Shown one piece after another: positions 1,244 through 8,595 of a stretch of 8,595 bases of DNA; positions within the stretch are counted from its first letter, which is position 1; every line of letters starts with the position of its first letter. This DNA comes from a virus (lineage: Duplodnaviria; Heunggongvirae; Uroviricota; Caudoviricetes). The DNA lies in the IMG/VR virus record IMGVR_UViG_2778261121_000002; one strand, written 5' to 3'. The notes beneath the pieces were generated by a model, which was not told where the DNA came from, did no database searches, and saw only the letters and a list, made by a program, of their open reading frames with translations. The position numbers and the translations under genes were made by a program.

Positions 1244-1765
1244 ATGGTTAAAGACATCACCTACGGCATACCGGCTGAAGTATGGCCGCGAAACTACGAA
1301 CATGCTGAACGCACCTTGCTCTTCTGGCGGAGGGCTAAATTTCCTGTAAGAGTCACTCTCGAAGATGGCCAAGTGTTTTGCATGTACGTTTATGGTCTCA
1401 TGTCATCTCGTAACAAAGTTGACCTTTGTCCAACTCCATTTGACAAAGAAAATCGTATAAGGCTCCCACTTGAGCGCATTAGCACAATTGAATCAGGCGT
1501 AATTGATGGCATTGATTACGATTTCAAAGGGAGACTAACAATACACCCTGACTATGTAGACAACCAGCCATCACGTCGTGACTTTTTTAAGATATGTCGC
1601 AAGGCTTATCAAAACGGCCAATCTATAAGGGTCTACATGGCAGATGGCCGCGAAATTGAGGGAACGTCAGATGGCGTTGATGCCTGCCTAGTCACACTTA
1701 AGTTGAAAGACGGCAGAAAAATTCTTGTTTTCTTCGATTGGGTTGAACGAATTTTACCTTTTTGA
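1244..1765 (+). CDS. Hypothetical protein with two tandem Rof/YaeO-like repeats (putative modulator of Rho-dependent termination)
   Basis: 173-codon ORF with RBS aaaggtag 5-6 nt upstream and a TATAAT box at 1210-1215. Internal duplication (VRVTLEDGQ...SSRNKV...RIRLPLERIST versus IRVYMADGRE...VTLKLKDGRKI). The first repeat resembles E. coli Rof as I recall it (LTLELKDGEK...SRKNV...RELRLDKITS); this is from memory, not a search. Confidence 0.7.
   Translation: MVKDITYGIPAEVWPRNYEHAERTLLFWRRAKFPVRVTLEDGQVFCMYVYGLMSSRNKVDLCPTPFDKENRIRLPLERISTIESGVIDGIDYDFKGRLTIHPDYVDNQPSRRDFFKICRKAYQNGQSIRVYMADGREIEGTSDGVDACLVTLKLKDGRKILVFFDWVERILPF
1708..1758. repeat. 51-bp perfect direct repeat, copy 1 (3' end of the 1244-1765 CDS)
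   Basis: agacggcagaaaaattcttgttttcttcgattgggttgaacgaattttacc is identical at 1708-1758 and 2074-2124; flanking bases are also similar. Confidence 0.9.
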
Positions 1766-1768
1766 GTT

Positions 1769-2065
1769 ATGAAATCGATACTATTGACATCATTATTTTT
1801 AGTTTACTCAATTTCAGCCAATGCAAAGGATGATATCGCAATTATTCAGTCGCTGATGAATGACGTATGCTCAACGTCTCAGAATGTACCAGTTTGCATG
1901 TTTAAACTTTCAGCAGCTGTAAAACTAGGGATAAACATTGGTAAGACCGCTCAACTATGTGAACAAGTGGAAAATTATGAACCATGTGAATCGAACAACT
2001 CTTCTGTGCAGTTCGTTGATGCGTTATTTGACACCAATCGTAAGGCTGTAGAGTCAGTCCGATAA
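1769..2065 (+). CDS. Small secreted four-cysteine protein, paralog 1 (98 aa)
   Basis: N-terminal signal-peptide-like segment MKSILLTSLFLVYSISANA with an AxA cleavage motif. Mature part has four Cys in two pairs (C-x8-C ... C-x9-C). ATG lies 3 nt after the upstream stop with no Shine-Dalgarno, suggesting translational coupling. Confidence 0.65.
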   Translation: MKSILLTSLFLVYSISANAKDDIAIIQSLMNDVCSTSQNVPVCMFKLSAAVKLGINIGKTAQLCEQVENYEPCESNNSSVQFVDALFDTNRKAVESVR

Positions 2066-2131
2066 ATGTATGAAGACGGCAGAAAAATTCTTGTTTTCTT
2101 CGATTGGGTTGAACGAATTTTACCGTTTTAG
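2066..2131 (+). pseudogene. 21-codon in-frame remnant duplicating the C-terminus of the 1244-1765 protein
   Basis: ATG directly abuts the stop of the preceding gene (taaATG). Encodes MYEDGRKILVFFDWVERILPF, matching ...KDGRKILVFFDWVERILPF at the end of the 173-aa protein. Contains repeat copy 2. Confidence 0.5.
2074..2124. repeat. 51-bp perfect direct repeat, copy 2
   Basis: Identical to 1708-1758; lies immediately upstream of the second small secreted-protein gene. Confidence 0.9.
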
Positions 2132-2140
2132 GATATTGAT

Positions 2141-2440
2141 ATGAAAACTGTAGCAGCATTCACATTCTTAACTTTCATTTTTAGCTCTTCCGCATTTTCT
2201 CAAGAAAATAGCATTGAACGAGTGCAACGTGTCTCTACAGAGTTGTGTTCAAAGGCGGAAGACTACGATTTGTGCATGTTAGACCTAAGCATGGCTTTAG
2301 GCGCTGCATATCAAGATGGACTGATCGTTGCGGGATGCAAGTTGGGACTTGATGAGCCTTCGAAAGACAAATGCGAAAACTCGGAGCGTTTTCAGGAATA
2401 TATAATAAAAGAAATCAGGAACTATGCAAAAAAGATGTAA
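2141..2440 (+). CDS. Small secreted four-cysteine protein, paralog 2 (99 aa)
   Basis: RBS aggat 6 nt upstream. Signal-peptide-like MKTVAAFTFLTFIFSSSAFS. Four Cys in two pairs (C-x8-C ... C-x11-C), same architecture and size as paralog 1. Confidence 0.7.
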   Translation: MKTVAAFTFLTFIFSSSAFSQENSIERVQRVSTELCSKAEDYDLCMLDLSMALGAAYQDGLIVAGCKLGLDEPSKDKCENSERFQEYIIKEIRNYAKKM

Positions 2441-2453
2441 ATTCCTATAAGGG

Positions 2454-2484
2454 TAATAACCGGCTAAGTCCGGTTATTATTTTA
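2454..2484 (+). terminator. Rho-independent terminator closing the AT-rich cassette
   Basis: 10-bp stem taataaccgg / ccggttatta with loop ctaagt, followed by a T-run (ttttac). Confidence 0.65.
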
Positions 2485-2721: not shown

Positions 2722-3372
2722 ATGGCTAACATTATCATTTCTAAAAAATCCATCATTGAAGCTGCTTCCATTGTATCCGATGAACTGCGCGAAAAAGCAG
2801 ATCTGGCAACTCAAACATATAACGAACATTATAAAAATGGTACGCACACTAAAGCAGACAAAGCAAATATGCAAGCTGCGACCACTAAACTTGCTTACTT
2901 CATCAACAACGTTGTAAACGCTGTAGAAGACGAAAAATTATGCTCTGTTTTCTACTATGCGATTAAAGCAAGCAAACAAGCGCCAGAAGTATTTTTCCGT
3001 GATGCTATGACTAATAGTTATTCACTGGAAAAACTGGTTTATCTGGTTAAATCCATTAAAGCTGGTAAATGTGTTTATTCCGTCGCTGATATGTCTGGAT
3101 CTCGTGTATTCGCTTTAATCGATATGATTAACGACGAGATCGACACGTTCACCAATGGCGCTGTTTTCGACTTAATGAATGAAGCTAAAAAAGCGTGTGA
3201 AATTAAATTGGACGTTGGCTATACTCAAGCCAACCAGTTGATCAATCTTTGCGAACGTCTTGGACTTGTTGAAAAAGTCAAAGGAATGGGAAGCGCCAAA
3301 GCTGGTACACAGCAATATCGCTTTATCAAGAATGATTTCTACAATTATTTAGCTGATGCTTTCAAAGCGTAA
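2722..3372 (+). CDS. Hypothetical protein (216 aa), first gene of a three-gene operon
   Basis: RBS taaggat 7 nt upstream of ATG. Long ORF with non-repetitive composition. No motif recognised by eye. Confidence 0.8.
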   Translation: MANIIISKKSIIEAASIVSDELREKADLATQTYNEHYKNGTHTKADKANMQAATTKLAYFINNVVNAVEDEKLCSVFYYAIKASKQAPEVFFRDAMTNSYSLEKLVYLVKSIKAGKCVYSVADMSGSRVFALIDMINDEIDTFTNGAVFDLMNEAKKACEIKLDVGYTQANQLINLCERLGLVEKVKGMGSAKAGTQQYRFIKNDFYNYLADAFKA

Positions 3373-3385
3373 TTAATGGAATCAT

Positions 3386-3405
3386 GCGCCCACTATGGGC
3401 GCTTT
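3386..3405 (+). promoter_or_regulatory. Intra-operon hairpin (attenuator or RNA-processing candidate)
   Basis: gcgccca-cta-tgggcgc followed by only ttt, then the RBS aaggag. The same 20-mer recurs at 3882-3901 as part of a terminator. Confidence 0.4.
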
Positions 3406-3420
3406 AAAGGAGCTTTAAAA

Positions 3421-3624
3421 ATGGTCAGCTATGACAAGATCCGCGCGGAATATCGCGCAAAGTATCGCGCTTACAAACTGGAATTAATCGATTATTTGAT
3501 CGCGCAACGCGACCAATTAAATTTTACGTTTTCTGATTTGCTTAACAGCAAGCGAGATTGCAAGCGCAAACGTGAATACTTACGTTTAAGCGCATTAATC
3601 GGAAAACTTCAAAATTCTATTTAA
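3421..3624 (+). CDS. Hypothetical small basic protein (67 aa)
   Basis: AAGGAG 8 nt upstream of the ATG at 3421. The longer ORF from 3376 lacks an RBS and overlaps the hairpin. Lys/Arg-rich sequence. Confidence 0.6.
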   Translation: MVSYDKIRAEYRAKYRAYKLELIDYLIAQRDQLNFTFSDLLNSKRDCKRKREYLRLSALIGKLQNSI

Positions 3625-3644
3625 TTTTTTTAAGGAGCTTAATC

Positions 3645-3875
3645 ATGTTTGTTCTTATCGCTGGCGTTAACGTCCATAACGAATATTATGTTAATCGCAT
3701 CGCTGGGATCGCTGGTTACGCTGGGCGCGCAGTCGCGCTTATAGATGAAACGACGCGCAAAATTGACTTATTGAGCGACCAGGAGCGAAAAAAAGCAGAC
3801 GTGAACGACGCTGATATATTTTTAATGTTAAAAGCGTTTGTAGAAATGGGATTTGAAATCAGTTTACATAAATAA
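3645..3875 (+). CDS. Hypothetical protein (76 aa)
   Basis: AAGGAG 7 nt upstream of ATG; followed directly by tandem terminators. Confidence 0.65.
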   Translation: MFVLIAGVNVHNEYYVNRIAGIAGYAGRAVALIDETTRKIDLLSDQERKKADVNDADIFLMLKAFVEMGFEISLHK

Positions 3876-3880
3876 AATCG

Positions 3881-3904
3881 AGCGCCCACTATGGGCGCTT
3901 TTTT
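3881..3904 (+). terminator. Rho-independent terminator 1 of the plus-strand operon
   Basis: 8-bp GC-rich stem agcgccca / tgggcgct with a 3-nt loop, then a run of six T. Confidence 0.75.
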
Positions 3905-4492: not shown

Positions 4493-4975
4493 TTACACGC
4501 CATCAAGGATGTGGATGCGGTTGCTTGCGTATACATTCAGCATAAAGTTAGCGCAAAACAGTTTCCATGTATCAACGCCAGCGGTATACGTAATGTTTTT
4601 GCATTTAATTGCATTGTTGGCGATCCGCATCCCCTGCGATACTGCTTCATCGTCGGAAAATTTGAACGACGATTGAGTTTTAATCCAGACAGAAATCTGC
4701 GTAGCGAACTCAATCAGCTTGGACTGGCAGAATCGCCCGGAGCGCACCGGAAAGACGAACGTTCCGAATCCAGAATTTACCACATATGCTTTCTCAAATA
4801 CCCGCGAGTAACGACGATTGCCAATGATGTCGCGTGCAATAATGCATTTTTCTTGTGCTGACAGTTCTACCGTCTCATTGTCGCGCCATGCACCAAGTAC
4901 TCGTTTTTCAATGTCAGAGAACGTTACAGCGATATTGCCATGTGCGGGTGCGTTTACAGTAGCGATAAAATTCAT
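4493..4975 (-). CDS. Hypothetical protein (160 aa)
   Basis: RBS aagga 7 nt upstream of ATG (minus strand); conserved promoter/leader module A upstream. Confidence 0.75.
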   Translation of the reverse strand: MNFIATVNAPAHGNIAVTFSDIEKRVLGAWRDNETVELSAQEKCIIARDIIGNRRYSRVFEKAYVVNSGFGTFVFPVRSGRFCQSKLIEFATQISVWIKTQSSFKFSDDEAVSQGMRIANNAIKCKNITYTAGVDTWKLFCANFMLNVYASNRIHILDGV

Positions 4976-5049
4976 GATTGATTCCTTATCGTAAATAACA
5001 AATTGTTTTCTTGTTGGTGTTAATTATCGTTGTACGAATAAGGCGTCAA
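4976..5049 (-). promoter_or_regulatory. Conserved promoter/leader module A
   Basis: Minus-strand reading: TTGACG, 15 nt, GATAAT, then TAACACCAACAAGAAAACAATTTGTT..., RBS, ATG. The core GATAAT + 10-11 nt + AGAAAACA is shared with modules B, C and D. Confidence 0.6.
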
Positions 5050-5063
5050 AGTGGAAAGTTACG

Positions 5064-5135
5064 GTAGCCGGACGGGAACAGGTGGGTTTGTCGGTTGCCT
5101 AGAGGTAAGAGGTTGGTGTTTTTAGCCTGCGGGGA
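5064..5135. repeat. Dispersed ~70-bp repeat, copy 1
   Basis: cggtagccgg...aggtgggtttgtcggttgcct...agaggttggtgttttt aligns with cggtagcctg...aggtgggtcttttcggtagcct...agaggttggttgttttt at 8246-8310. Confidence 0.5.
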
Positions 5136-5178
5136 ACAGGATGGTCATTTAAGGCCACCAGCATTGGCAGCCTATATA

Positions 5179-5524: not shown

Positions 5525-5716
5525 TCATCGTGCCCCCATCTCCTGCAACTGTGCAACGGTGATATCTGGACACAGCCCGTCGATCCACACCCACACGTCA
5601 ATGATGCTGTCACCGGCTTCAAAATGGTGAAATGCACGCTCAAGCTGCTGATTGTTATCCACAGGCTCATTTGCTAGCTGCGCCCAGATTTGCTGTACTT
5701 GAGTAATAGTTTTCAT
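5525..5716 (-). CDS. Hypothetical small protein (63 aa)
   Basis: RBS agagga 6 nt upstream of ATG; conserved module B directly upstream. Confidence 0.65.
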   Translation of the reverse strand: MKTITQVQQIWAQLANEPVDNNQQLERAFHHFEAGDSIIDVWVWIDGLCPDITVAQLQEMGAR

Positions 5717-5775
5717 CTGCTTTCCTCTTGTTTTCTTGTTGTTGTAATTATCGCAGTGTAGATAAGGTAGAAAAC
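5717..5775 (-). promoter_or_regulatory. Conserved promoter/leader module B
   Basis: Minus-strand reading: TGcGATAAT (extended -10), then TACAACAACAAGAAAACAAGAGGAAAGCAG, ATG. The -35 is weak. Confidence 0.5.
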
Positions 5776-5789
5776 AAATTGTTATCGGG

Positions 5790-5821
5790 TATAAGAAAAT
5801 GGCGCGGTTTACGCGCCATTT
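5790..5821 (-). terminator. Rho-independent terminator after the 5830-6225 gene
   Basis: 10-bp stem aaatggcgcg / cgcgccattt with loop gttta; on the minus strand it is followed by ttttcttat. Confidence 0.65.
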
Positions 5822-6351: not shown

Positions 6352-6663
6352 TCAGGCTATTGCCATCACTGATGCTCTCTGAATCTCTTGCTGGGCCACG
6401 CGGTTAACTTCCATCAAAGCCAGTTCGAGCTGATGTTCCGGCCACATTCTTTGAAATGCCACCCAGCCTTTTCCACGCTGGCGACGAACATTCATTACAT
6501 AACGAGTAAAGGTGTTTTTATCGAAAGACACCGCTGTTTCACGGAACAGACGAATAGAGGTTCCATTGGCAACGATGTCCAGCAAAGTTAATTGAGCAAC
6601 CAGCGCAGGCTTCTCTTTTCTCTTCTGGTCTTTGTCCAGACCAAGAACCAATGATTTTTTCAT
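6352..6663 (-). CDS. Hypothetical protein (104 aa)
   Basis: Start taken at the ATG preceded by RBS acggag. The upstream in-frame ATG at 6693 lies inside conserved module C and lacks an RBS. Confidence 0.7.
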   Translation of the reverse strand: MKKSLVLGLDKDQKRKEKPALVAQLTLLDIVANGTSIRLFRETAVSFDKNTFTRYVMNVRRQRGKGWVAFQRMWPEHQLELALMEVNRVAQQEIQRASVMAIA

Positions 6664-6728
6664 CACAACTCCGTAAACAACTTGTTTTCTCAATGGCGTA
6701 AATAATACCAGTAAGAAAACGGCTACAA
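6664..6728 (-). promoter_or_regulatory. Conserved promoter/leader module C
   Basis: Minus-strand reading: TTGTAG, 15 nt, TGgTATTAT, then TTACGCCATTGAGAAAACAAGTTGTTTACGGAG..., ATG. Confidence 0.55.
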
Positions 6729-6789
6729 AGCATATTGATCAGGTGCATGAGCGATATGCAGGTTCTTCCCTGCGGCTACAGATTAAGTT

Positions 6790-6817: not shown

Positions 6818-7147
6818 TTACGCGAATACCTCAAGAAACTCCTGAACGTCCCAATGCTGGACGAGGTGAAGATAGACCTTAGAAATCACGTCATTTTCGC
6901 TATCGCATGTGAAGTAGTACTTCTGGCTGCGGTTGTATGTGTCCACACAAAATTCGCTCATATCCATAAAGTCAGCATCTTCACCCAGGTCGCTGATCAT
7001 CAAAGCAGGTGCGTCATCACGAGTCATCAGTTCCAGCACCCATCTTGAATTGATCAGAGTGGAAGACCAACCTTCTAACTCATAAAACTGATCAAACTCT
7101 TTTTGAGTTAATTTCTTGATTTGGTTGATGTCGATATTTGTAAACAT
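6818..7147 (-). CDS. Hypothetical strongly acidic protein (109 aa)
   Basis: Start taken at the ATG preceded by aagga + 7 nt. The upstream ATG at 7168 lies inside module D. Hand count: 21 Asp/Glu against 8 Lys/Arg. Confidence 0.7.
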   Translation of the reverse strand: MFTNIDINQIKKLTQKEFDQFYELEGWSSTLINSRWVLELMTRDDAPALMISDLGEDADFMDMSEFCVDTYNRSQKYYFTCDSENDVISKVYLHLVQHWDVQEFLEVFA

Positions 7148-7212
7148 AAAGCAATCCTTAAACAACATGTTTTCTTGATGGTGTTATTATCGCAATAACG
7201 CATAGGCGAAAA
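7148..7212 (-). promoter_or_regulatory. Conserved promoter/leader module D
   Basis: Minus-strand reading: TGcGATAAT, then AACACCATCAAGAAAACATGTTGTTTAAGGATTGCTTT, ATG. Confidence 0.55.
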
Positions 7213-7473
7213 AGGATTTTGTTCCGGTAAATGTGGTTTTGGCAGTGAGTTTTCAGGTTCAGTACCGAGTACACTTTTTACATTATTCTGATTTAGTGGC
7301 CGAAAGTGGCTGGTGGCAGAGTAATCCTCTCCCCAAAAACCTACTGAAATCGATTGTGACCCGTTGGCTGTCTGGCACAATTACGCTGTAGCTGGGCATT
7401 CAGAGGGAATCCAGCGGTAAGCAAGTCCGCCTACGTGAGCGCCTCTCTTCTTCCCGCACATTACAGGTGGGTA

Positions 7474-7756: not shown

Positions 7757-7790
7757 CTATACATGTTGTGTTTTCTTCGTGTTTTATCTG
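7757..7790 (-). promoter_or_regulatory. Degenerate fifth copy (module E) of the conserved promoter/leader motif
   Basis: Minus-strand reading: GATAAA-ACACGA-AGAAAACA-CAACATG. It shares the AGAAAACA core but has different spacing and no downstream gene. Confidence 0.3.
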
Positions 7791-8245
7791 TTTCAACCTC
7801 TCTATAGGCGTTAATGCTCACTCCTTCCAGAACGTTCTATACGGCGACTATTTCTGTTGGTGAATTGGGTGTGTTGTTTCCCTGTCGGTGTATGTGGTTT
7901 CGTTAGTTTTGCGGTGGTTCTTCTATGGGGTGTTCTCGTCGTTTTGGTGATTGTTCTTCTCCGTGTATGGAGTAATAGCAGGTGGGCGATTGCTTTCGTT
8001 ATTGTGTTTGAGTTGTTTGACTGGAGTGTGTGGAAGGCTTTTGTAGTTATTCGTGTATTGGGTAATGGCATTTCCCGTGATTGTTATGTTTCGTGTCTTT
8101 TGGGATTGAGAGAAGCCTTGCGGTTACAGGCTTCGTTGGGGTTTCAGCGGTTCAGGTGTTTCTTCGCTGTTTGGGTAATGGCGTGTCGTGGGTATCGCGC
8201 GTATGAATGTTTTCGGATTGCCTGTGAAAGTTAGGTTGGTTGTCC

Positions 8246-8310
8246 GGTAGCCTGGGGAGAAGAGGTGGGTCTTTTCGGTAGCCTGCCATAAAGAGGTTGG
8301 TTGTTTTTGG
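8246..8310. repeat. Dispersed ~70-bp repeat, copy 2 (internal sub-repeat cggtagcctg twice)
   Basis: Aligns with 5064-5135; see copy 1. Confidence 0.5.
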
Positions 8311-8322
8311 AAATAGCATTTG

Positions 8323-8339
8323 TGTTATTTAGTTGTTTT
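8323..8339. repeat. 17-bp direct repeat tgttatttagttgtttt (second copy at 8554-8570)
   Basis: Identical 17-mer at both positions with similar flanks (ttat follows both). Confidence 0.45.
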
Positions 8340-8500
8340 GTTATGCCTGAAAATAAGTTGTTTATACGGTTGTGTAACGCAACGGGAGCGATTTTGAGCG
8401 TGTGTTTTTGTTGGTAGTGTGTTGGGTCGTCTGTGGTGAAAATTGGACGCTGTGGCGCTGTCTGCTGCGTAGAGTTACGGGTATAAGAAATGATGTGTGA

Positions 8501-8545
8501 AAACGTCAATTTTTTAGACCAAATCGGGTGAAAGCGTTGACGTTT
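8501..8545. other. 9-bp inverted repeat aaacgtcaa / ttgacgttt separated by 27 bp
   Basis: Perfect inverted repeat. The loop is too long for a typical terminator, so it is more likely a protein-binding dyad. Confidence 0.4.
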
Positions 8546-8595
8546 CGTTGATCTGTTATTTAGTTGTTTTCTTATTTGTATAAACAACCATAACC

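Follow-up and report, generated by a model that had tools for sequence, protein, structure and literature searches.

The DNA analysed here is a window of 8,595 nucleotides (IMG/VR record IMGVR_UViG_2778261121_000002) that, judged by its sequence, comes from an SSU5/Cyrano-like phage-plasmid of Escherichia coli. It carries, on the plus strand, a gene for a homologue of the flagellin repressor FljA, followed by two small genes, g1 and g2, whose products are predicted to be secreted; between these two lies a 21-codon open reading frame (ORF) that repeats the end of fljA. Comparison with related elements identifies this arrangement, hereafter the composite, as the product of a recombination event in which two pre-existing alleles, one carrying g1 and the other g2, were joined once. 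The account that we consider likely as a whole is that alternative alleles occupy a slot behind fljA, that a single illegitimate join stacked two of them, and that the resulting operon would serve as a lysogenic-conversion module. The window shares ~94% identity with Escherichia phage Cyrano (pLF82), and ~780 plasmids from Enterobacteriaceae that belong to the SSU5/pHCM2 type of phage-plasmid also match it.

The fljA-like gene (1244..1765) is the first in the operon and the source of the repeated tail. Its 173-residue product is a full-length FljA homologue, with a match to PF03614 ('repressor of phase-1 flagellin') at an E-value of 2e-79 that covers profile positions 1-170 of 170, and a second match to phrog_1444, a transcriptional repressor (E 9.5e-97). 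The repeated segment consists of the last 19 codons and the stop of this gene. It forms a perfect direct repeat of 52 nt (1707-1758 and 2073-2124) with a period of 366 nt, and extends to 64 nt at 94% identity (1707-1770 and 2073-2136). The original prediction for this DNA, made from the letters alone, had described a perfect repeat of 51 bp (1708-1758 and 2074-2124); the repeat is real and is one base longer, starting at 1707 and 2073. In a BLAST comparison of the window with itself, it appears as 57 nt at 98.2% identity (E 1.5e-22) and is by far the strongest repeat present, the next best having an E-value of 1e-4. The first copy (1707..1770) is the genuine 3' end of fljA, with a g1-type ending (...CCTTTTTGAGTTATG), and the second (2073..2136) is a g2-type fljA tail (...CCGTTTTAGGATATTGATATG). 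The repeat thus flanks g1 (1769..2065), which encodes a precursor of 98 amino acids (aa), and precedes g2 (2141..2440), which encodes a 99-aa precursor. The 21-codon ORF (2066..2131, peptide MYEDGRKILVFFDWVERILPF) opens with an ATG directly after the TAA of g1, in frame, as had been predicted. The predicted layout of two tandem units, each made up of an fljA tail and a small gene, is also borne out. An 85-aa ORF on the minus strand (1902-2159) was dismissed, as it crosses the composite-specific junction and cannot be conserved in relatives with a single gene.

Gaps of only 3, 0, and 9 nt separate fljA, g1, the 21-codon ORF, and g2, and no promoter-like site was found on the plus strand between 1244 and 2440; fljA, g1, and g2 therefore most likely form a single operon. 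Translation of g1 is probably coupled to that of fljA, since g1 starts 3 nt after the fljA stop and lacks a good Shine-Dalgarno sequence. Direct reading places the Shine-Dalgarno sequence of g2, AGGA, at 2130..2133, 7 nt 5' of its ATG and overlapping the TAG stop of the 21-codon ORF. The operon ends in a terminator-like hairpin (2450..2483) with a 14-bp stem, a 6-nt loop, and a U-rich 3' side, for which RNA folding gives −15.3 kcal/mol and a z-score of −2.9. A simple terminator scan missed this single hairpin after g2 because that scan demands at least five T. Its position is kept in seven compared sequences (L001-L007), behind whichever gene is last at the locus.

Among relatives (compared sequences carry L numbers), the interval from the fljA stop to the terminator hairpin occurs in four states. 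It is empty in Cyrano and SSU5. It holds only a g1-type gene in L005, L006, L015, and L046, for example in pSCMY1, and a 102-aa form that is 76% identical to g1 is common in E. coli. Only a g2-type gene is present in L003 (E. coli NZ_CP027369), L007, L014, and L072, and in most Klebsiella elements. Finally, the composite, g1-tail-g2, is found in L004, L008, L067-L071, and L075. In PLSDB, g1-type genes occur in 111 records (108 from Escherichia), g2-type genes in 151 (138 from Klebsiella, 10 from Escherichia, and 3 from Cronobacter), and both together in 8. The 53 fljA loci in IMG/VR comprise 32 with neither gene, 9 with a g1-type gene, 9 with a g2-type gene, no composite, and 3 that are truncated. 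Composites were present in 7 of 5426 complete E. coli genomes, and those known are the 8 PLSDB plasmids, one 108-kb metagenome contig, and the window itself. The comparison of composites described below covered seven of the eight plasmids; the eighth spans the region fully, and its sequence lies outside that comparison. Across relatives, the copy number of the small gene is zero, one, or rarely two, never more, which does not sustain the earlier description of the locus as a tandem diversifying array. The synteny of fljA with a small gene reaches elements whose FljA is only 40% identical (L011/L012), where the gene encodes a distant family member, P0026, indicating that the pairing is old. Literature searches on FljA in phage-plasmids returned no relevant paper, and the pairing of FljA with a small secreted-protein gene was not found in the literature.

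The two kinds of small gene are each linked to their own form of fljA end. Across genera, fljA ends in ...CCTTTTTGAGTTATG before g1 and in ...CCGTTTTAGGATATTGAT(A/G)TG before g2, and TAA-AT(n)TATAAGGGTAATAACCGG... comes after the last gene whatever the state of the locus. Against this background, the junction in the composites can be read base by base. All composites examined share the join of TAAATGTAT to GAAGACGG, with the breakpoint between 2071 and 2072. In g1-only plasmids the stop of g1 is followed by ATGTATAAGGG, and in the composites by ATGTAT joined to GAAGACGG; the g1-only L005 reads TAAATGTATAAGGGTAATAACCGG, and the donor-like L003 reads AAGTTA followed by GAAGACGG. The ATGTAT at 2066..2071 therefore corresponds to the first six bases of the terminator spacer as it stands after g1 in g1-only plasmids, and this scar indicates that g1 was once the terminal gene. 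At the junction, these six spacer bases run directly into position −60 of an fljA stop, with no microhomology between the two sides.

The origin of the other half is apparent from identity profiles. Over 69 nt, the second tail of the window is 100% identical to the fljA end of NZ_CP027369, and g2 is 99% identical. Compared with a Klebsiella element (L007), the window is a mosaic in which fljA is 73% identical, the tail 83%, g2 95.7%, the spacer 71%, and the next gene 82%; in the Klebsiella comparison, the synonymous divergence (dS) is 0.07 for g2 vs 1.2 for the next gene. We read the slot behind the FljA-like gene as polymorphic: it stands empty or carries a gene of the g1 or the g2 type, and the same terminator hairpin comes after it in each case, with g1 and g2 as long-diverged allelic forms of one small-protein family. 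Homologous exchange would recently have carried the g2 allele between elements of the Klebsiella type and the E. coli type. A single illegitimate join would then have fused the sixth nucleotide after the g1 stop in a g1-carrying element to position −60 of the fljA stop in a g2-carrying E. coli element, giving the order fljA-g1-[fljA tail]-g2-terminator, with ~60 bases of the fljA end copied as a direct repeat of 52-64 nt. The 21-codon ORF would owe its existence to a coincidence of frame at this join.

Two points sit less comfortably with this course of events. Among the composites, the window alone has two tails without any difference over the 52 nt, and 2-3 mismatches occur in the others; this perfect identity may be either ancestral or due to gene conversion, and local mosaicism, in which the fljA allele of the window belongs with the L008/L070 group and its g1 allele with the L004 group, prevents a choice between the two. 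In addition, g2-only E. coli plasmids of the NZ_CP027369 type, rather than being the parent of an early composite, could have arisen from it by deletion. Extended to the whole locus, the latter idea would make the composite ancestral and the single-gene and empty states its deletion products. Direct repeats of 52 nt would readily delete g1 to leave an fljA-g2 plasmid, and the tail of NZ_CP027369 is exactly that expected of such a product. The distribution of states nevertheless makes this a very unlikely history. Composites are rare (8 of ~254 PLSDB records that bear a small gene, and 0 of 18 in IMG/VR) and occur solely in E. coli elements that are close relatives, always with one junction, whereas single-gene states span Klebsiella, Salmonella, and Cronobacter and occur beside a 40%-identical FljA. 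The intact spacer in g1-only loci (ATGTATAAGGG...) would require a precise second deletion. The tails of two g2-only elements with a window-like fljA, L014 and L072, differ from both tails of the window, and these elements were accordingly rejected as repeat-mediated deletions of a window-like composite. The evidence instead suggests that the composites are a young monophyletic group derived by the single join.

The original prediction had explained the locus by tandem duplication in situ of a unit made up of the fljA tail and one small gene, after which the two copies would have diverged into paralogues. A head-to-tail layout, the 366-nt period, and two homologous genes of nearly equal length are what such an event would leave. 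The parts of a duplicated segment should, however, be comparably diverged, and here the 52-nt tails are 100% identical vs 28% amino acid identity between the genes. Each gene also occurs alone at the same site in many lineages, with its own linked type of fljA end; g2 is 96% identical to Klebsiella copies between flanks that are 71-83% identical; and the ATGTAT after g1 is the start of a terminator spacer, six nucleotides of which are kept at the junction. We thus give duplication in situ hardly any credence as compared with the joining of two alleles. Integron-type gene cassettes were also considered and rejected, there being no inverted repeat that flanks g1 or g2 and no integrase domain among the ten ORFs scanned, and the boundaries falling at the fljA stop and the terminator spacer. 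Short-read assembly can in principle go wrong at a perfect 52-nt repeat, but the possibility of a collapsed or mis-joined assembly is negligible, given that the same layout and junction, with independent point differences, recur in the seven complete plasmids examined (from different countries and hosts) and in the 108-kb metagenome contig.

In the 21-codon ORF, two codons from the spacer run on in frame into the final 19 codons and the stop of the second fljA allele, and the last 19 residues of the peptide match the FljA-like C-terminus except for a K to E change at the first of them. It had been proposed that this remnant is preserved for translational coupling. Several features invite that view: its ATG abuts the TAA of g1, its stop overlaps the Shine-Dalgarno sequence of g2 just as the fljA stop does in g2-only plasmids, and it is open in all 8 composites examined. 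A functionally maintained remnant, serving either to couple g2 translation to that of g1 or to encode a micro-protein with the FljA C-terminal motif, nonetheless appears to us decidedly unlikely. The ATG is pre-existing native spacer, and an in-frame fusion had a chance of 1 in 3. The AGGA of g2 is a good Shine-Dalgarno sequence of its own, used also in the g2-only L003 and L007, where the TAG of fljA overlaps it, and folding of the RNA from 2040 to 2175 reveals no unusual structure that could occlude it (z-score −0.07). The only substitutions in the remnant, E to D in all seven plasmids (with the same two base changes in L075) and W to L in five of the seven, are non-synonymous and fall at residues that are invariant in the compared fljA tails. 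With two substitutions in 63 nt, the openness of the frame is uninformative, and so few changes demonstrate neither selection nor drift. A coupling role is unnecessary in view of the native ATG, the Shine-Dalgarno sequence of g2, and the nature of these changes; the earlier reading is probably wrong, and the remnant is most likely a by-product of the join that may incidentally allow re-initiation.

The two small proteins are themselves diverged homologues. BLASTP aligns g1 with g2 at 28% identity over 60 aa (E 3e-6), profile hidden Markov models (HMMs) built from the mature parts only connect them at E-values of 1e-7 to 1e-9, and the four Cys align across the two families. In g1, a Sec signal peptide is predicted to be cleaved between ANA and KDD after residue 19, and Cys are at positions 34, 43, 64, and 73. 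For g2, the predicted cleavage is between AFS and QEN after residue 20, with Cys at 36, 45, 66, and 78. Both precursors have an MK n-region and a hydrophobic core with a Kyte-Doolittle (KD) value of ~2.3-2.4 (0.66 for FljA as a control), and neither has a lipobox or a Cys before residue 34. The features associated with Sec export and disulfide formation, namely a positively charged n-region, small residues at −3/−1, and an even number of Cys in the mature part, recur in every homologue, and we infer from them that g1 and g2 are Sec-exported. The earlier account was right to describe the two as diverged and homologous, each with a signal peptide and two pairs of Cys. Both genes are under purifying selection, with ratios of non-synonymous to synonymous substitution (dN/dS) of 0.28 for g1 (window vs L008) and 0.24 for g2 (vs a 56%-identical relative), in a set from which the pairs with L028 and L005 were left out as out of register. 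In the PHROG collection, g1 matches phrog_9536 (E 2.5e-30) and g2 matches phrog_27673 (E 6.7e-63).

Existing annotation renders these genes poorly. In every composite or g1-only plasmid examined, the 98-aa g1 is unannotated by RefSeq/PGAP, and the common 102-aa form (L006:1267-1518) is annotated from Met20, the predicted mature N-terminus, so that its signal peptide is lost. In the composite plasmid pSTEC388_1 (NZ_CP041426, L071:1638-2024), a frameshift at the 3' end of g2 extends the product to 128 aa through the terminator region; the same is seen in cluster P0003.

AlphaFold2 models of mature g2 reached a predicted local distance difference test (pLDDT) score of 79 when built from 8 sequences and of 85 from 19, and both contain helices at 4-16, 22-43, and 62-78 together with a short helix at 55-59. 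The mature part (~79 aa) of the g1/g2 family is accordingly modelled as a disulfide-stapled three-helix bundle. When mapped on the g2 model, the first Cys pair spans the turn between helices 1 and 2, and the second lies in the connection between helices 2 and 3, positions that suggest local 'staple' disulfides.

Profile comparisons place g2 in the family of the phage T4 protein Vs (PF26829), with g1 as a divergent branch. The precomputed Pfam assignment PF26829.1 ('ValRS_modifier', phage T4 Vs family) is present on all full-length g2-family clusters, and g2 matches phrog_1256, 'valyl tRNA synthetase modifier', at an E-value of 5.5e-5. A profile-profile alignment (hhalign) of the g family with 12 Vs homologues gave a probability of 91.6% and an E-value of 8.4e-7 over residues 22-67 of mature g2; because the alignment is confined to these mature residues, the match is not driven by the signal peptide. 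HMMs of mature parts connect the g family with Vs at E-values of 1e-5 to 1e-7 (10-18 bits). For g1 there is no precomputed Pfam match and the HMM score against Vs is marginal, and its tie to the family runs through g2. Like Vs, g1 and g2 are small phage proteins (~100-115 aa) whose N-terminal signal peptide precedes a helical mature part, and each has four Cys; they differ in genomic setting, with vs located in the T-even early region and g1 and g2 behind fljA in a temperate phage-plasmid.

The family is very small, amounting to a handful of clusters, all enterobacterial, whether 5.8 billion proteins were searched by word index or 1.84 billion representatives exhaustively with an HMM. The HMM search returned only 11 proteins at E ≤0.001, four of which were judged spurious (long acidic repeat proteins that share a CxxxxxxxxC motif). 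A g2-like protein of 101 aa, P0022 (43% identical; L009:1040-1345 and L010:909-1214), is encoded away from any fljA, next to genes for a DNA polymerase III theta-like protein, DUF2913, Hha, and DcuC, and its location indicates that the family is also present outside the phage-plasmid slot. A scan of the genome collection with P0022 yielded a signal-peptide match only.

Several points count against a Vs-like protein that acts in the periplasm. The C-terminal motif SMVDRLVDSYNRGL, invariant in the 12 Vs homologues, is missing in both g1 and g2. Their Cys follow the spacing C-x8-C-x20-C-x8/11-C, that of Vs being C-x5-C...C-x10-C, so that their first Cys loop is longer and the second pair stands elsewhere and does not align. 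The likeness to Vs resides mainly in the N-terminal half (helix 1, the first Cys pair, and helix 2). Signal peptides were called by a rule-based check rather than by SignalP, and fold and sequence searches against the PDB and BFVD gave nothing informative or specific (a PDB sequence search with g2 gave 0 matches). Lastly, the annotated role of T4 Vs as a cytoplasmic modifier of valyl-tRNA synthetase points away from the periplasm.

Taken at face value, that annotation would make g1 and g2 cytoplasmic modifiers of valyl-tRNA synthetase as well. The PF26829 assignment of g2-family proteins speaks for this, as does the finding that T4 vs is important for growth in minimal medium (bioRxiv 10.1101/2025.11.20.689424). 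Predicted cleavable signal peptides and paired Cys in g1, g2, and T4 Vs alike fit the periplasm instead, and the restriction of the similarity to the N-terminal half, with the Vs C-terminal motif missing, further weakens the transfer of function, leaving a cytoplasmic role with little probability. T4 Vs itself (L013:5387-5734, minus strand, NP_049724) has a canonical cleavable signal peptide (MTKILVLCIGLISFSASASA before DTS) and four Cys in the mature region, conserved in 12 homologues; these features fit a periplasmic protein and sit oddly with a cytoplasmic partner.

Salmonella FljA blocks translation of the host flagellin. In the phage-plasmid, the operon would be expressed as a lysogenic-conversion module in which FljA would silence host flagellin at the level of translation and in which g1 and g2 would be periplasmic proteins that bind or inhibit a target in the envelope or on an incoming phage. 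Translation of g1 would be coupled to that of fljA, g2 would be driven by its own Shine-Dalgarno sequence, and one terminator would serve all. The polymorphism in presence and allele, together with the host bias of g1 towards E. coli and of g2 towards Klebsiella, would reflect targets specific to a host or a competitor. Export, disulfides, and operon structure are here deduced from sequence features, and a periplasmic binding or exclusion function for g1 and g2 is a tentative suggestion that we regard as possible but doubtful. In size, Sec signal peptide, and disulfide-stabilised fold, the proteins resemble T4 Spackle, the lysozyme inhibitors Ivy, MliC/PliC, and PliG, and the immunity proteins of type VI secretion systems, and like such small periplasmic inhibitors they are encoded by variable genes with presence/absence polymorphism on a mobile element. 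Membership in an immunity or lysozyme-inhibitor family, which the original prediction had raised, found no backing in Pfam (E ≤1) or PADLOC (E ≤0.1). Pfam (E ≤1) and NCBIfam scans of g1 and g2 gave noise only, PADLOC (E ≤0.1), which covers known anti-phage defence systems, returned no match for fljA, g1, g2, or the 216-aa neighbour, and neither profiles nor folds matched g1 or g2 to Ivy, MliC/PliC, PliG, or Spackle. A sub-threshold NCBIfam match to PME_inhib (pectinesterase inhibitor; 16 bits, over the signal peptide) was discarded.

A bolder and unlikely extension is that Vs-like proteins, including T4 Vs, are periplasmic, disulfide-stapled specificity factors for superinfection exclusion or envelope targeting that co-operate with FljA-mediated loss of flagella. 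The polymorphism of none, g1, or g2 would then be the outcome of an arms race or of adaptation to the host (E. coli vs Klebsiella), the g1-g2 tandem would be a dual-specificity variant, and the 50-year-old label of 'valyl-tRNA synthetase modifier' would not describe the main role.

The arrangement can be compared with two known systems. As in the Salmonella fljBA module, a full-length FljA homologue (PF03614) is encoded in a short, terminator-ended operon; here, however, there is no flagellin gene and no Hin invertase, and the repressor is followed by variable genes for small secreted proteins. The locus is also akin to the allelic (idiomorph-like) moron slots of temperate phages, in which alternative, highly diverged genes occupy one position between conserved flanks (here the fljA end and the terminator) and identity profiles are mosaic. 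It departs from these in that an illegitimate join has stacked two alleles and in doing so copied a portion of the left flank.

Other parts of the window merit brief description. No Rfam family (at gathering thresholds) and no tRNA was detected in the window. Some 400 nt upstream of fljA lies a 271-aa ORF (23-838) for an HNH endonuclease (Pfam HNH E 4.9e-5, and several HNH phrogs). The surrounding region is variable, with 365-1095 common to few relatives only (L003 and L015), and the ORF is possibly a homing endonuclease insertion. A conserved gene for a 216-aa protein (phrog_1513) is located 3' of the g2 hairpin. Beyond it, an 82-aa ORF (3376-3627) matches phrog_6145, 'MIT family metal ion transporter', a name implausible for a protein of 67-82 aa; ~212 nt of this stretch (3416-3627) are missing from most relatives. 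Twin GC-rich hairpins at 3372-3405 and 3868-3901 (GCGCCCACTATGGGCGC, then TTT; 85% identical over 34 nt) stand after the 216-aa gene and a 76-aa gene, and are probably terminators of a shared type. A repeated motif, TGTTTTCTTGTTGGTGTTAATTATCG, with the palindrome AACAAnTTGTT, is found at 4982-5051, 5729-5798, 6664-6735, 7161-7215, and 7769-7795. Copies sit just upstream, on the minus strand, of the leftward ORFs 4493-4975, 5525-5716, 6352-6693, and 6818-7168, and the motif looks like a shared promoter or operator. The final part of the window (7800-8595) is G+T-rich and strongly skewed (GC skew ~+0.44, AT skew ~−0.5), contains dubious ORFs only, and holds several families of short repeats, such as TAGCCTG..GGAGAAGAGGTGGGT, related copies of which are found at 5065-5145.

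The feature described here, an unannotated Vs-like small secreted phage protein and its arrangement in a recombining moron slot, is fairly ordinary and a modest evolutionary curiosity. It offers a cleanly resolved case of how phage-plasmids reshuffle accessory genes: slot alleles behind fljA move between Klebsiella-type and E. coli-type elements, and one illegitimate join stacked two of them, leaving a scar that is diagnostic. From the 52-nt repeat, recA-dependent recombinational loss of g1 is to be expected. If the small proteins are periplasmic factors for exclusion or host adaptation, they would provide a handle on the T4 Vs family and on the reason for a flagellin repressor in SSU5-like elements.

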